Below are positions 3,903-41,358 of a stretch of DNA of 64,000 nucleotides, piece by piece. Under the pieces are notes generated by a model. The model was given only the letters and a program-made list of their open reading frames with translations. It did not search any database and had not been told where the DNA came from. Within the stretch, counting starts at the first letter, position 1, and every line of letters starts with the position of its first letter. A program made the position numbers and the translations under genes. Source of the stretch: Promethearchaeati archaeon SRVP18_Atabeyarchaeia-1 (GTDB lineage Archaea; Asgardarchaeota; Atabeyarchaeia; Atabeyarchaeales; Atabeyarchaeaceae); the NCBI GenBank assembly GCA_037308085.1, contig CP147779.1, positions 1,472,001 through 1,536,000 on the forward strand, given 5' to 3'.

Positions 3903-4976
3903 ATGGTGACCATTAGGGAAGAACTAATGGGGCTAGCTGCGAGAATAGCTTCCAGCGCTGAAGAGGAGTACGATGGACACTGGTGTTTATTCGCTGGCTT
4001 CGCATTCGTGTTGAATGGTGTTGAAAAGAAGACTTACGATATCGATTTGCTGACTAAGGATGTAGGTGCTTACAGGTACCTCACCGGCTTGCTCCAGAAA
4101 CTGGGACTCAGACTTATGACCGCGACGGAAGGTTACTCATCTTTCAGGGCTGCCGTGACAGACCGGGAACACTCACAACAGCTGACCCTGGATCTCCTAA
4201 GCATAGACAGCGAATGGTTGAAACCCCTGAAGAACATGTGGAGCAAACTGGAGAAGATACGTGTCGGAGAAATCCCCATTCCTGTTGCACATCCGATTCA
4301 CTTGATCCTGCTCAAGATGTTGGTTAACTCTCGCCGCCAATCCGGGGATAGAAAAAAGGAACAAGACTTGGTAGATGTCAAGCGGATTATGGCAATACGT
4401 TCTATCACAACCCCGCAGGTGATGAAGGAGGCATCAATACAGGACATGGAAGACACAGCAACCAAGTTCTTAGAGAGATTGGACGGATTATCGTGTAGCG
4501 GCAGTAATGAAGAGGCAGCTGGACGAATAACCTTGAGGAGGATGACTGAAGCAGACACCGACACTGCCATAGAACTCGCAATGCTGGCAAACCCACTTGC
4601 TGCTAAGGAGAGATATGGGAAGTTCATTATCTCTCAAATGTCGGAGTTCCCGGAGCTCACATTCGTTGCAGCAACTGATGGGGGCAGACGCGTTGTTGGA
4701 TATGTCACATCCGATACTAGCGGTGATGAAGCCTGTATTGAAGACATTGCGGTGGCACCACCATGGCAAAGAAAAGGAGTCGGAAAAATGCTCCTAACAG
4801 AGTCAATCAGACTGCTGAGGGAGAGAAAGACGCGGCTCGTTAAAGTCGAAGTCCACTACAAGTGCTCCTCGGCGATTCCCTTCTACTATGCTTTCGGCTT
4901 CAGGTTTGCTAGCTGTACACGTGACAGGTTCGGGAAGGGAGAAGATGCTATGACTCTAACAAGAGAGCTCTCGTAG
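3903..4976 (+). CDS. Nucleotidyltransferase (DUF6036/AbiEii-like) fused to a GNAT (RimI-like) acetyltransferase
   Basis: N-half has FAGFAF...TYDIDLL...LLKML...KKEQDLVD; C-half has IEDIAVAPPWQRKGVGKMLL...AIPFYYAFGF. ATG at 3903 is preferred over GTG at 3861. Confidence 0.75.
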   Translation: MVTIREELMGLAARIASSAEEEYDGHWCLFAGFAFVLNGVEKKTYDIDLLTKDVGAYRYLTGLLQKLGLRLMTATEGYSSFRAAVTDREHSQQLTLDLLSIDSEWLKPLKNMWSKLEKIRVGEIPIPVAHPIHLILLKMLVNSRRQSGDRKKEQDLVDVKRIMAIRSITTPQVMKEASIQDMEDTATKFLERLDGLSCSGSNEEAAGRITLRRMTEADTDTAIELAMLANPLAAKERYGKFIISQMSEFPELTFVAATDGGRRVVGYVTSDTSGDEACIEDIAVAPPWQRKGVGKMLLTESIRLLRERKTRLVKVEVHYKCSSAIPFYYAFGFRFASCTRDRFGKGEDAMTLTRELS

Positions 4977-27562: not shown

Positions 27563-27720
27563 CCGTTGTCCGAAACTTACCCGTTTAGGGCGCCGCCCAA
27601 ACGGCGTTCGGTTCCTGCTTCATCGGCGGGCACCTGCCACGCGGCATGAACCTCCCGCCTCTCGCAGGCGTTTAGCGTCTCCGCCCAACTGGCGGCGACG
27701 AATGCTAAGTTTAAAGCGGC
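27563..27720 (-). ncRNA. Putative omegaRNA (reRNA) scaffold of the IS607 TnpB
   Basis: GC-rich structured stretch overlapping the tnpB 3' end (GAGACGCTAAACGCCTGCGAG...GATGAAGCAGGAA...CAACGG) up to the right end; the guide would be the flank TCGTCAAGCACGTAG. Confidence 0.6.
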
Positions 27721-28773
27721 GTTGAGGTCGCGGTCAGCCTCAAAGCCGCAACGTTCACACCTGAAGGTTCTCTCGGAGAGCGGCATCTCATCCTTCACTG
27801 CTCCGCAGTTGGAGCACCGCTTCGTGGATGGGAAGAACGGGTCTGCTGCGACCACCACGCTCCCATACCACTTCGCCTTATACTTCAGCTGGCGGAGGAA
27901 CTCTCCGATTCCAGCGTCCGCAATCTGCTTCGCCAGGCAATGGTTCTTCATCAGCCCAGCCACGTTCAGGCTCTCCACGCCGACAACTGACTTGGTTCTC
28001 GCCAGCATCGCCGTGGCTTTGTGCTGGGCGTCCCTGCGGATGCAGGCGGTCCTGAACTCGCACCGAGCCAGACGTGACTGGGCATCCGCCCAGTTTCTGC
28101 TGCCCTTCACCTTCCTAGAAAGTGATCTTTGGAGCCGCTTCTTTTTCCCCTCATAGTAGAGCAGCGCTCTCGGATTCTCAACGGTGGTTCCGTCGCTGAT
28201 CGTGGCGAGCTTTGGTATGCCCATGTCGATCCCCACAGTCGGACCGACGTTTACTGGAACTTCAATTTCCTCATCTACCTGAACACTCACAAACCAGCGC
28301 CCCGCCTTTTCAGAGACCGCCGCAGACAGAATGTGAACTCCGTCAGTTGGTAGGTAGCCTTTCTCCTTGAGCCGAACCCTGCCGATTCGGGGCAACTGAA
28401 TTGAATTGCGGGCAACTGTAATGGAACCCGTGAGCCTGAAACCGCCGACTCCACGCCTCCTGCTCCTGAACTTCGGGTATCGGCTCCTCCCCTCGAAGAA
28501 GTTTCTGAACGCCCTATCCAAGTCGCGGAGGGCTTCCTGCGGGGCGCACTTCGAAACCTCGTACATCCACGGGAAGGTCGCGCGCTTTAGCGCATTCAAC
28601 TGCCGGTGCAGCTCGATTGCGTTCGAGGACTTTCCAGTCTTCTCGTATTCCTCCTTCCGCCGGGCAAGCCCCCAGTTGTAGGCAAACCTAGCTACGCCAG
28701 CAGACTTGAGGAGGAGCGTCTTCTGGACGTTGTTAGGGTCTAGCTCCGTCTTGTAAGCACGGTCAACCAGCAT
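27577..28773 (-). CDS. tnpB: RNA-guided endonuclease TnpB (IS607), catalytic triad intact
   Basis: AYKTELDP...GVARFAYNWGL; RuvC motifs GIDMG / VESLNV / DRDLNAALNL; zinc ribbon CSNC...CERC. Confidence 0.95.
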   Translation of the reverse strand: MLVDRAYKTELDPNNVQKTLLLKSAGVARFAYNWGLARRKEEYEKTGKSSNAIELHRQLNALKRATFPWMYEVSKCAPQEALRDLDRAFRNFFEGRSRYPKFRSRRRGVGGFRLTGSITVARNSIQLPRIGRVRLKEKGYLPTDGVHILSAAVSEKAGRWFVSVQVDEEIEVPVNVGPTVGIDMGIPKLATISDGTTVENPRALLYYEGKKKRLQRSLSRKVKGSRNWADAQSRLARCEFRTACIRRDAQHKATAMLARTKSVVGVESLNVAGLMKNHCLAKQIADAGIGEFLRQLKYKAKWYGSVVVAADPFFPSTKRCSNCGAVKDEMPLSERTFRCERCGFEADRDLNAALNLAFVAASWAETLNACERREVHAAWQVPADEAGTERRLGGALNG

Positions 28774-29329
28774 CTTTAGTAGCCTCCATTGCTCTCATAG
28801 CCCTATTCTTCGCTGCTCTCTTCCCATACAGTCCGGCGCAGAAGCTAGTTAGGACATCGATCATATCCGTTACTAGATCGTCCTTGCATTCAATTTCATT
28901 GGCTATCTCTGCTGTCCGATTGGCCGCTTTTAATGCGGCTATGATGTAACCCCATCCAAACCGTGCCAACCTGTCACGGTGTTCAACCACGATAGTGGAG
29001 ACGGAGGGATTTTCTAGAAGTTTGATGAGCCTCTTTCTGTTACCATTTAGCCCCGATCCAATCTCAGAGACCTCCTGAACCACATGGAGTCCCTTTGCGG
29101 TGGCATATTCACGTAGCCTTTGGAGTTGCCGTTCCAAGTCTTCTTTCTGATCTGATGAAGATACTCTGGCATATAGAGCCACGTTGTTGGTAGTTGTTGG
29201 AAGTTCATGTATGAGAATTGTTCCAGTTGGGAGCGGTTGCGTCGGGCATGGAAACTGCCCTGAACGATAGAGACGATAGGCAGTCTTGTAGTCCAGACCA
29301 TTCTTCCTTGCCCAATCTGCCAGCTTCAT
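28763..29329 (-). CDS. tnpA: IS607 transposase (MerR-HTH + serine recombinase)
   Basis: MKLADWARKNGLDYKTAYR, LYARVSSSDQKEDLERQ, EIGSGLN, EHRDRLARFG, LYGKR. Confidence 0.95.
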   Translation of the reverse strand: MKLADWARKNGLDYKTAYRLYRSGQFPCPTQPLPTGTILIHELPTTTNNVALYARVSSSDQKEDLERQLQRLREYATAKGLHVVQEVSEIGSGLNGNRKRLIKLLENPSVSTIVVEHRDRLARFGWGYIIAALKAANRTAEIANEIECKDDLVTDMIDVLTSFCAGLYGKRAAKNRAMRAMEATKDAG

Positions 29330-29571
29330 GCTAAATACCCGACCATAAATGGGTTGTATTGGTTATGAACTAATCTATCTGTTGAAACCCCACCGAAGAC
29401 GTTGGCCCTGGGTCAAGACGGCGATTGCTCCTGAGGGCGAAACCTGGGCAACTAGACGACTCGCACGACGAGCGATCCGGCGCTTATCTATATCCTTATT
29501 ACGTCTCAGAAGGATAGCAGAAGGTGCGGCCATAGTGGACATATAGGCGCAGTTTCAGACGGCTGGTTCCT

Positions 29572-39154: not shown

Positions 39155-39654
39155 GGTCGCTAAGAGCTAATGTAGGGCGCTCTTCCACCCTTCTGGGACA
39201 CGCCCACGATACATCACCTCTTGGGCACCCAGGAACGCACCCAATTCCTCGATGGCACTGGCTACAGCTCCGCCTGTCTCCGGCGTCATAGGCGCGTCCT
39301 GCTCTGCGTAGACCGCGTTTATGATAAGCTTCTTCTTCAATCGATCCATCGCTGGATCAACTCGGCCGATTATGCGATCCCCGTGCAGAATAGGCATAAC
39401 GTAATAGCCATACTTCCGTTTCGCCGTATACAACAGCCTCGGAATTCATGGGCTTAGGTAGGCGTAGACAGGAGGATGGCCGTTTATATCGAGAATCCTC
39501 GCACGCTAGTATTGGTAAGGATAGGCTCCTATCCAGCGCGGATGTGGCGAGGAATGGACGAGCCGCCTATGAAGGTCGCGGCGGAGAAGCCACTGTAGGC
39601 ATGTCCGCTGAATCAGAAATCTTCCGAGAATGAGAACCTGCAAACACAGGGGGT

Positions 39655-40929
39655 TTGTTGAAAGCGCTAAGGACCTACTCGCTCAGCCATAACCAGGGCG
39701 AAGCACTCAGCGACCTGATGTCTGCATATAACTCCGCCCTCAACGAGATGCTGCAGCGCATCTGGGGAACAATACAGTGGAGGAAGCATCAGATCAAGGG
39801 CAAGAAGCAGCACCGGCTCTACCCTCGTTACAGGAAGGACAACGCCTTCAAGCGCGGGCTGAGAGACACATGCCTGGAAGGGTGGGTCTACGCTGCTCAC
39901 TGGGTTGACTCCGCCTTGAAGACCGCCTTCAGCATCATGGCTTCCTGGAAGAGGAACTACGACAAGGGTGAGAGGAGGAGGGCGTGCCCACACGCGGGAA
40001 GGCTCTTCCTGCGGGCAAAGCAGACCCTCCTCAAACTTGAGGGTGAAAAGCTGAGGGTCACCGTGAAGCCACGCGAGTTCGTTTACATCGACCTGTCCCG
40101 GCGCTACTTCAAGCTGCCCAGAAACGTGTCCTCCGCAGGCATAGGTGAACCCATCATCACGCCCGATAGAATACACCTCCCCGTCCACGTACAAGAAGAG
40201 CCGCAGAAGAAGCCAGCCGAGAAGACAGCGTGGGACTCGAACATGCTCAGCATGGATGGGTACAGCCCTGAGACTGGCTGGGTGAAGATTGATACGAGGA
40301 GGCTCGCCTCCGTCCACATCTCGGCCTTCGAGAAGAGGCGCAGCGTGCAGAGGAAGGCCTCCAACTCGAAGCGGGCGAAGAGAGCCCTCACGAAATACGG
40401 GAGGAGGGAGAGGCACCGCGCGAGCAAGCACCAGGTGGAGATAGCGAGGGTGATTCGCTCCCTATCAGACGAAAACGGCTTCGAGGAGCTTCGCAAGGAG
40501 AGGCTCTACTCCAAGTCGAGCGTGTGGAACAGGCGAGTAACGCGCACGGACTGGCGCGGAATAAGGAGACTCGCGGACGGCGTTGAGGTGCCTCCCCAGT
40601 TTACCTCGAAGACGTGCTCCAGATGCGGGTGGACGAACAAAGACCTAAGAGGAGGAGTAGCGGTCTTCGAGTGCGGGAAGTGTGGGCTGCGGATTGATAG
40701 GCAGCTCAACGCCGCCATCAACCTCTACCTGAGGATGGAGGGCGTTCCCCACAGGAAGGAGTGGTGGGATGCAAGCATCCTGCCTTCCTTAGTGGGTGGG
40801 TACGCCCTGACGGGGGCGGAGCGGAGGGGCGCCGATGAACTCGTGAGGCGCCTATATGATGCGGTGAAGCCCCAGATCTACGCAGCATACGACAGGTACG
40901 CTGACGCGTACCTACCCATGCCTACGTAG
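39655..40929 (+). CDS. tnpB: TnpB-like protein with RuvC-III Asp replaced by Gln
   Basis: AWDSN / GFEEL / FTSKTCSRCG...CGKCG / IDRQLNAAINL. Confidence 0.8.
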   Translation: MLKALRTYSLSHNQGEALSDLMSAYNSALNEMLQRIWGTIQWRKHQIKGKKQHRLYPRYRKDNAFKRGLRDTCLEGWVYAAHWVDSALKTAFSIMASWKRNYDKGERRRACPHAGRLFLRAKQTLLKLEGEKLRVTVKPREFVYIDLSRRYFKLPRNVSSAGIGEPIITPDRIHLPVHVQEEPQKKPAEKTAWDSNMLSMDGYSPETGWVKIDTRRLASVHISAFEKRRSVQRKASNSKRAKRALTKYGRRERHRASKHQVEIARVIRSLSDENGFEELRKERLYSKSSVWNRRVTRTDWRGIRRLADGVEVPPQFTSKTCSRCGWTNKDLRGGVAVFECGKCGLRIDRQLNAAINLYLRMEGVPHRKEWWDASILPSLVGGYALTGAERRGADELVRRLYDAVKPQIYAAYDRYADAYLPMPT

Positions 40930-40937
40930 GTTGAAAC
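40750..40937 (+). ncRNA. Putative omegaRNA overlapping the 3' end of the second tnpB
   Basis: GTGGGTGGGTACGC (40792-40805) pairs with GCGTACCTACCCAT (40906-40919) using G-U pairs on +; inner GGGGC/GCCCC and GGCGCC hairpins; ends GTTGAAAC at the element boundary. Confidence 0.55.
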
Positions 40938-41358
40938 CCTTCGGCACATAGATCTCCAAGCTGAACTTAGTTGGAGAGCTACTCTGTTCGTCTCCGATCG
41001 CGTATGAGATTGTCAAACGGTGAGAGCAAAGTCGTTCGAGGCTCCCAGAGACCAGACTTCAGTTTGTCGAGTAAGACAGTCCTCCATGTGGATATACCAT
41101 GTCCCGCCCACCACGTCGATTGGATCAATCTTTATATACCCGATATCGCGCACGACATCGACTATGCCATCAGAGGTGGCTGGTGGACAAAGACCCGCGA
41201 GTCGTTGACAAGCAATTGCGAGCCGGCGAGCGATCGTGGGGGAGATGACTCTGGCTGCGACTTCCTTCTCTGAAAACGAGTCCAATCCTCCTCTCCTCGA
41301 CAACAATTTCATTGAGTTCCTCCAAAGGTAGGTCTAGGACAATTCCTTTGACTCTGAG

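Follow-up and report, generated by a model that had tools for sequence, protein, structure and literature searches.

Positions 39424-40939 of the 64,000-nucleotide stretch analysed here (the window, taken from contig CP147779.1 of the archaeon SRVP18_Atabeyarchaeia-1) hold, on the plus strand, a tnpB gene whose 3' end overlaps a predicted omegaRNA scaffold, both enclosed between the two ends of a mobile element and flanked by the remains of a gene for an AlkZ-like glycosylase (Table 1). The locus is a non-autonomous copy of an IS607-type insertion sequence that is widespread in archaea; this copy comprises a left end (LE), tnpB, the omegaRNA and a right end (RE), and has no tnpA. Its TnpB carries a glutamine at the position of the RuvC-III catalytic aspartate, and the explanation that we favour for the locus as a whole, with modest confidence, is that of an archaeal IS607 copy whose TnpB is still a working enzyme with an altered D-E-Q site.

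An IS607-type copy within an AlkZ-like gene

What delimits the element? A DNA search of the organism's own 2.8-Mb genome returned eight full-length copies of 73-89% identity, together with about six short 3' fragments that each keep just the last 85-280 nt. The match of every copy and fragment ends exactly after ...GAAACCC, i.e. at window position 40939, the sequence beyond being unrelated, and similarity drops sharply after CCC in about 50 loci of other archaea, too. At the left end, the sequence common to three copies begins with CGCCGTAT. Counted with both copies of the CC core, the element measures 1514 bp plus one shared CC, and taking out 1514 nt, so that one CC is left, restores the minus-strand AlkZ-like frame (...EIYVPKAKRKYGYY...). 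The site is empty in a genome of the same family (G012) and in one of the same genus (G023), where the flanks abut with an overlap of exactly CC (tttgG-CC-tttgg and ttatG-CC-tcggc, respectively). There is consequently no target-site duplication, CC being present at 39424-39425 and at 40938-40939 here and only once in the empty sites. The first-pass annotation had derived its boundaries from the alkZ frame and a 2-nt CC/GG core, and its coordinates prove right, backed as they now are by the paralog ends, the restored frame and the two empty sites. Its remark that terminal inverted repeats are missing is roughly right as well in that long ones are absent, yet imperfect inverted half-sites of 8-9 nt adjoin the cores (GTATACAAC on the left, GTTGAAAC on the right), and short imperfect repeats near the ends are what has been described for the IS607 family (PMC6188088). 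The presence of several copies with unrelated flanks, eight full ones plus fragments in this genome and multiple copies in other metagenome-assembled genomes, is likewise typical of IS607 elements.

The orthologous gene in G012 is intact and encodes an AlkZ-like glycosylase of 429 aa (PF06224, E 3e-53). Its counterpart here is a pseudogene, from which residues ~67-298 are gone (an internal deletion of about 230 aa) and which has suffered several frame changes. In the reading that we favour, a serine-recombinase crossover placed the element at a G-CC site within this gene, the insertion proceeded without target duplication and left CC common to both junctions, and the host gene decayed only afterwards. 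For the annotation of the window, the locus adds one more tnpA-less IS607-type element, interrupting an AlkZ-like repair gene.

The affiliation with IS607 rests on the recombinase associated with the relatives. Scanning a single genome from each prokaryotic species yielded 80 related loci, all of them archaeal, which together with locus L032 make 81; in 37 of these tnpB is directly preceded, on the same strand, by a gene, or the remnant of one, for a resolvase with a MerR-type helix-turn-helix (HTH) domain that runs up to the tnpB start. The TnpA that characterizes IS607 is a serine recombinase whose N-terminal part is a MerR-type HTH and whose gene precedes tnpB in the same orientation; it thus belongs to the lineage and is missing from the copy here. 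A blastx comparison of the 39426-39654 leader with TnpA found no TnpA remnant; other copies keep such remnants, and one of the same genome (c3) retains a decayed tnpA with a frameshift and a TAG stop. The closest solved structures (PDB) to the TnpA of the lineage are MJ0014 (E 3e-45), ISC1904 ORF1 and ISC1926 TnpA, and the precomputed Pfam assignment of the TnpB N-terminus is PF27234 'MJ0013'. Judged by these relationships, the lineage belongs to the IS607 family as its archaeal branch, which includes Methanocaldococcus jannaschii MJ0012-14 and Sulfolobus ISC1904 and ISC1926. Published archaeal members (MJ0012-MJ0014, ISC1904 and ISC1926; PMC4058570, PMC6188088) likewise show the order tnpA-tnpB, no target duplication and GG/CC termini, and differ from the copy here in that the latter is without tnpA; a Sulfolobales relative (L107) also has DRQ in its TnpB and a right end terminating in ...GACCC. 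An IS200/IS605 (Y1) identity is argued against by the linkage to a serine TnpA and by the shared CC core, no scan having been aimed at Y1 transposases.

Table 1. Coordinates of the element, of the host gene remnants and of the neighbouring IS607 in the window
Feature	Position	Strand	Remarks
C-terminal piece of host AlkZ-like gene	39170..39425	-	residues ~345-429 of orthologue; PF06224 E 5.7e-4; tblastn 65% identity to intact G012 orthologue
Left junction	39419..39425	+	host TTTCG, then CC crossover dinucleotide 39424-39425; presumed transposon-adjacent motif (TAM) of the excised (empty) site
Left end (LE)	39426..39480	+	starts GTATACAACAG; homologous to LE 5' of tnpA in full-length relatives and to LE of copy c3
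Non-coding 5' leader	39426..39654	+	position where tnpA would sit; common only to copies c2 and c6
tnpB	39655..40929	+	424 aa, TTG start
RuvC-I D194	40234-40236	+	invariant in 66 aligned homologs
RuvC-II E277	40483-40485	+	invariant in 66 aligned homologs; ends predicted beta-strand as in ISDra2
C4 zinc finger C321/C324/C340/C343	40615-40683	+	invariant in 66 aligned homologs
Q350	40702-40704	+	codon CAG, motif DRQLNAA; at RuvC-III Asp position
Predicted omegaRNA scaffold	40739..40939	+	covariation and fold; overlaps tnpB 3' end; 5' limit approximate
Right-end (RE) terminus	40930..40939	+	inner half-site GTTGAAAC and CC core 40938-40939
[quoted passage not shown]
Upstream remnants of same AlkZ-like gene	40938..41285	-	tblastn pieces 8-66, 299-333, 335-350 in different frames
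Neighbouring canonical IS607	27563..29390	-	tnpA 28763-29329; tnpB 27577-28773 with DRD; NCBIfam transpos_IS607 E 8e-53, IS607_TnpB/IS200_TnpB

Glutamine at the RuvC-III position

The product of 39655-40929 matches Pfam PF07282 (Cas12f1-like TNB zinc-ribbon, E 1e-13), its matches to PF01385 (OrfB_IS605) and to NCBIfam guided_TnpB (40 bits against a cut-off of 100 bits) lying below threshold. An AlphaFold2 model built on 66 homologs has a mean predicted local distance difference test (pLDDT) score of 88, and its best Foldseek matches are Cas12f, the mimivirus Fanzor2 and TnpB ternary complexes, all with a probability of 1.0. The protein is a divergent TnpB. With the ISDra2 TnpB (PDB 8BF8, 8EXA, 8H1J) it shares the domain order, the RuvC-I Asp, the RuvC-II Glu, the C4 zinc finger and the omegaRNA overlapping the 3' end; by contrast, the sequence similarity between the two is weak (E ~1e-3), ISDra2 has a Y1 transposase as partner and IS200/IS605-type ends, the lineage here possesses a C-terminal extension of about 70 aa, and Q350 stands where ISDra2 has D361. 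The last point was established through an intermediate: a phmmer alignment of the canonical TnpB encoded in the window (P0002) with ISDra2 TnpB puts D191 in GVDVG and makes D361 the second Asp of DRDENAA; the DRD of P0002 aligns to the DRQ of the divergent TnpB, and NADYNAA of Cas12f and DRDENAA of Fanzor2 align likewise against DRQLNAA. Because the three alignments agree, Q350 can be said to replace the RuvC-III Asp, as the DRQLNAA reading of the first-pass annotation had implied. The catalytic Asp expected of a TnpB at this place is therefore lacking, and the Gln found instead is conserved in at least 90% of the clade.

Does this Gln reflect the decay of a single copy or a property of its lineage? 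All eight paralogs of the genome, which are 67-89% identical at the protein level, have DRQLNAA. A word-indexed search blind to the motif retrieved 120 homologs with at least 54% identity (from Thor-, Frey- and Mars-type archaea, Nitrososphaeria, Methanosuratincola and others), with 85 instances of DRQL, 31 of NRQL, one of DRQV and two of DRHI among them, so that DRQ or NRQ occurs in 117 of the 120. Further out, 42 full-length relatives, down to 27% identity, came up when 1.8 billion cluster representatives were searched exhaustively with HMMER; in the alignment of these with the two TnpBs of the window, the third catalytic position is occupied by Q in 23 sequences, D in 10, H in eight and N in one. 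It follows that almost only side chains of the metal-ligand type occur there. In the same alignment D194 is invariant throughout, and E277 is present in all Q-type and D-type sequences and in 88% of the H-type ones. Frequencies were taken from the motif-blind searches since the DRQ counts in the 81 fetched loci are biased by one search pattern that itself contained the motif. Among five intact paralogs of the genome the ratio of non-synonymous to synonymous rates (dN/dS) is 0.20-0.28, and the synonymous rate (dS) is lower in most paralog pairs over the last 79 codons, where the omegaRNA lies. Given that eight of eight paralogs and 117 of 120 homologs share the Gln, and that purifying selection accompanies it, these comparisons indicate a TnpB held under purifying selection and a Gln that is a lineage trait and not decay; the earlier idea of a TnpB lineage, as opposed to a single mutant, is thereby borne out. 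In three relatives (L071, at 3978-4100, and also L091 and L105) the element is autonomous with an intact tnpA and its TnpB reads NRQLNAA, both acidic residues of DRD being absent. The Gln at RuvC-III, being ancestral and under selection in hundreds of archaeal TnpBs, should, in consequence, not be scored as a mark of decay or domestication.

Non-Asp residues at this position have a precedent. Altae-Tran et al. (2023; PMC10691335) describe TnpB branches with an altered RuvC-III ('RIIIr-#', and rearranged 'Ser-#'), some of them confined to archaea, which resemble the lineage here in being conserved at a non-Asp residue, mobile, linked to a serine recombinase and archaeal. The main text of that study names just the D-to-His case and describes no Gln branch.

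Terminal sequences, omegaRNA and predicted TAM

The first-pass annotation had further claimed that the cassette is inverted relative to its serine-recombinase ends, a claim that hinges on a decamer, GTTGAAACCC, found both at 40930-40939, after tnpB, and at 29381-29390, upstream of the tnpA of the neighbouring canonical IS607. The identity itself is real, and the second occurrence is indeed the true left terminus of that IS607 (GG core at 29390-29389, then GTTTCAAC). How, then, do the ends of the two lineages compare? In full-length relatives of the Gln lineage the LE lies upstream of tnpA, about 60 nt before its start, and reads (C/T)G-CC-GT-N5-AACAGTTTCAAAAT...; the LE of the copy here, CG-CC-GTATACAACAG... 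(CC-GT-N5-AACAG...), and that of c3 are of the same sequence class. Since its LE matches those upstream of the tnpA of its relatives, the copy here is LE-(tnpA lost)-tnpB-RE, the canonical order. The ends of the neighbouring IS607, defined by an alignment of 13 related loci, are an LE of GG-GTTTCAAC (type GG-GTT-NN-CAACAG), running from 29390 downward, and an RE of ...GTTTCGGACAAC-GG at 27563 (...GGACAAC-GG). This element is single-copy in the genome and has an intact TnpA closest to IS1535; its left flank ends in TG, which gives a TGGG junction equal to the TAM measured for CboIStron. When the Gln lineage is compared with the neighbouring or bacterial-type IS607, the TnpAs are about 35-41% identical, and the TnpBs match over no more than the zinc-finger and RuvC-III stretch. 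On the coding strand, the central dinucleotide is GG in the neighbouring IS607 and CC in the Gln lineage.

A genuine inversion against the ancestral IS607 ends, whereby the end proximal to tnpB would go back to the left end of an IS607 and the TnpA of the neighbouring element could act on it, would account for the fact that the reverse complement of the RE (GG-GTTTCAAC) equals the LE terminus of the neighbouring IS607 over 10 nt, and also for the observation that, with the asymmetric core as reference, an end of the 'half-site-CC' form is the RE in this element and the LE in the neighbour. However, beyond the half-site the LEs of both lineages are alike (XX-GT, 4-5 nt, CAACAG and then A/T-rich sequence ahead of tnpA), and in both lineages tnpA lies downstream of the LE. 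Moreover, the GT...AC half-site is inverted at both ends of each element, as befits a dyad crossover site, and for this reason an RE of one lineage, read as its reverse complement, can look like an LE of the other. The decamer is conserved in neither lineage: right ends read GTT-, ATT- or ATC-GAAACCC in this genome and AGC-, AGT- or CAG-AACCC elsewhere, left ends of the canonical (GG) lineage are mostly an 11-nt GGGTTNNCAAC, and the 14 occurrences of the decamer in the genome (about 5.4 expected) include four at Gln-type right ends and nine at unrelated places. A changed core dinucleotide would explain everything in fewer steps. We conclude that the terminal sequences are best read as a short shared motif (core and inner half-site) plus chance and not as an inverted cassette, the latter being very improbable. 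The comparison of homologs for ends, orientation and tnpA linkage that had been proposed along with the inversion thus upholds the serine recombinase (37 of 81 loci) and fails to show any inversion, the full-length relatives having LE-tnpA-tnpB-RE and the LE here being homologous both to theirs and to the neighbour's. The bacterial-type IS607, IS1535 and CboIStron elements (PMC10690162) are like the copy here in their serine TnpA, the shared 2-nt core, an omegaRNA that terminates with the RE and a TAM formed by left flank and core, and differ in having GG as coding-strand core and DRD in TnpB, in place of CC and DRQ. Cross-mobilization by the neighbouring TnpA (28763-29329) was considered: the terminal half-sites match, yet this protein shares just about 41% identity with the cognate type, and the subterminal sequences differ.

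The 3' part of the element has the hallmarks of a guide RNA gene. The 205 nt of 40735-40939 fold with -95.8 kcal/mol (z = -3.9) into a structure that closes with a terminal hairpin followed by a single-stranded GUUGAAACCC tail, and 40 3' regions from diverse archaea can be aligned with compensatory changes, for example in a stem of 6-7 bp around the invariant loop GAUGAACUCGYGA; according to RNAalifold, 15 of 21 pairs show such changes. A covariance model covering the final ~130 nt has 82 instances in the sequences searched, including five tnpB-less fragments in the genome itself. In the resulting alignment 94% of the cells are paired, against 71% in shuffles and 37-54% when partners are slid, and double-sided changes number 237 where 72 are expected from shuffles. 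An Rfam scan of 39300-41100 gave nothing but a sub-threshold, spurious match to mir-7563. Fold and covariation together identify an omegaRNA of about 200 nt in the usual place, overlapping the tnpB 3' end and ending exactly at the RE at 40939, in agreement with the fold that had been proposed to close there. Because the predicted RNA ends at the RE, the guide would be taken from the right flank.

Modules of this kind also occur on their own. Five loci of the same genome, outside the window (L010-L014, at about 1944941, 1708728, 742779, 697732 and 1437529), lack tnpB and have a complete 3' omegaRNA module with an exact right end (scores of 50-86 bits with the covariance model); they could be orphan guide-RNA genes usable in trans by the intact TnpB paralogs. 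A Nitrososphaeria contig (L041) has a second omegaRNA/right-end module at 1314-1443 on the minus strand, opposite to that of tnpB and 1.6 kb upstream of it, which could be a neighbouring copy or, again, an orphan.

What would such a guide recognize? Of the 15 left junctions that could be defined, 14 have G just before CC, and this G mostly follows C or T. The RE shows AAC before CC, so that left flank and RE contrast, G against C, at the base before the core. In CboIStron (PMC10690162), where the TAM is TGGG and the RE ends in TCGG, it is precisely at this base that discrimination occurs, and the last two bases of the scaffold are the core. By analogy, the TAM here is predicted to be about YGCC, composed of left flank and core, with the guide beginning after the core and not in it. 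The earlier proposal of a TAM near TTTCG with a guide starting in the core is therefore retained in part: TTTCG plus CC fits YG-CC and the guide would indeed lie in the right flank, but its start, if CboIStron is a good model, would not be within the core. Once the element had been excised, the donor joint ...TTTCG-CC-TTCGGCAC... would form the target, and the occupied site would be spared as its RE presents AAC-CC instead of YG-CC. Recombination at CC on the coding strand would, more generally, predict a TAM of the Y-G-C-C type with a clear contrast between self and non-self at the base before the core.

Mobility, the question of domestication and the possible activity of the D-E-Q site

Could the copy have been recruited by its host? 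The first-pass annotation had called it TldR-like while still mobile. A TldR-like domestication, by which the copy would have become a nuclease-dead RNA-guided repressor with a guide regulating a host gene, would be in keeping with a tnpB frame that stays intact although tnpA is absent and with the Gln that replaces the RuvC-III Asp, one of the three catalytic residues, and TldRs (PMC10705468) likewise have the fold of TnpB, a RuvC triad that departs from the canonical one and a guide RNA that has been kept. TldRs, however, do not move, occupy a host neighbourhood that is conserved, frequently have a shortened C-terminus and bear guides directed to host promoters (PMC10705468), and none of this is true here. 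In place of an immobilized single locus, the genome has eight paralogs that have diverged and whose flanks and guides are unrelated; genomes of the same genus and of the same family lack the insertion at the corresponding site; the guide would match just the remains of a decayed AlkZ pseudogene; the C-terminus is extended, by 70 aa, and not truncated; and the Gln is ancestral to a mobile clade with its own TnpA. Domestication of this sort is accordingly hard to credit at all. The multi-copy state, the variable guides and the empty sites thus contradict the TldR-like part of that description; mobility holds for the lineage, whereas the copy here is probably stranded. No intact cognate tnpA was found beside any Gln-type tnpB in the organism's genome, and because the only cognate tnpA, that of c3, is broken, the copy is probably immobile there at present. 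Elsewhere in the genome, outside the window, 1259030-1259635 on the plus strand encodes an intact 206-aa serine recombinase with a MerR-type HTH that is 43% identical to the TnpA of the Gln lineage and is not followed by tnpB; possibly, it is a trans-acting transposase or part of another element. The genome also contains about 25 further distant TnpB-like reading frames (~260-440 aa, 25-38% identity), a heavy TnpB load for a 2.8-Mb archaeon.

There remains the question of what a TnpB with a D-E-Q site does. We propose that it would be a working RNA-guided enzyme with the empty site as its substrate, in the manner of other IS607 TnpBs. The invariance of D194 and near-invariance of E277, the confinement of the third position to D, H, Q or N, the mobility of the lineage, the selection on tnpB and the contrast between the ends all make us lean, by a slight degree, towards an altered but active nuclease. 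Conserved RuvC-III rearrangements in mobile branches are also read as probably still active by Altae-Tran et al. (2023; PMC10691335).

Several points weigh against this view. Exchange of catalytic carboxylates from D to N or Q usually cripples RNase-H-like nucleases. Q-type sequences have no carboxylate at the third position, and in about 26% of the 120 homologs, including the autonomous L071, the adjacent Asp is lost as well (NRQ); since NRQ members exist, L071 with its intact tnpA among them, the DRQ motif itself offers no substitute carboxylate. A search for a compensating acidic column in Q-type versus D-type and H-type sequences found only D201 and D348, and D201, although conserved in 100% of Q-type as opposed to 40% of D-type sequences, probably lies away from the metal site. 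There is also no direct sign of recent mobility or homing, given that the paralogs are old (dS 0.3-1.0) and that four metagenome DNA runs hold no empty-site variant: contigs bridging both junctions show the occupied site only and no joint across the element, which carries no weight either way on excision, and loose ends at 40939 in metagenome contigs are paralog flanks. Finally, the literature searched contained no experiment on any Gln-type TnpB. The SisTnpB1 papers, in which just D187 and E271 are named as catalytic, are not used as evidence here.

Perhaps, then, Gln-type TnpBs make no double-strand breaks, and their action on the guide-matched empty site is limited to binding or, at the utmost, nicking, or else RuvC serves only to process their own omegaRNA. 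Such a protein would aid its transposon otherwise, by marking or blocking the donor joint or by modulating TnpA. The canonical third carboxylate is absent across the clade, the adjacent Asp is missing from about a quarter of the homologs and no compensating acidic residue stands out, all of which suits this scenario, as does the finding that the RuvC domain of TnpB processes omegaRNA (PMC10278001); furthermore, binding in the absence of cutting is known from relatives of Cas12 and TnpB (PMC10691335, PMC10705468). Against it stand the strict invariance of D194, the near-invariance of E277 and a third position that shows D, H, Q or N and no drift; dead derivatives, according to Altae-Tran et al. 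(PMC10691335), have so far usually lost several catalytic residues and become immobile, and the lineage here is mobile and multi-copy in many phyla. We regard a TnpB without double-strand breaks as a tentative alternative only, and still tend to favour the altered but active enzyme.

How much of this is new? The kind of element is already known, both from archaeal IS607 elements and from TnpBs with a rearranged RuvC-III. What the present locus adds is modest: an exact empty-site proof of its boundaries, the polarity of the CC and GG cores of two IS607 lineages side by side in the window, a predicted YGCC TAM and an omegaRNA model supported by covariation. Cutting by a D-E-Q TnpB appears never to have been assayed, and the answer bears on whether transposons need the nuclease, on compact editors and on natural dead binders. 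It is even conceivable, if rather unlikely, that a whole archaea-wide and still-mobile IS607 clade has a TnpB that makes no double-strand breaks and does no more than bind under guidance, nick or process RNA. Were this so, selection could keep an RNA-guided transposon protein in a proliferating element without the break-and-repair homing that is now thought to explain TnpB.

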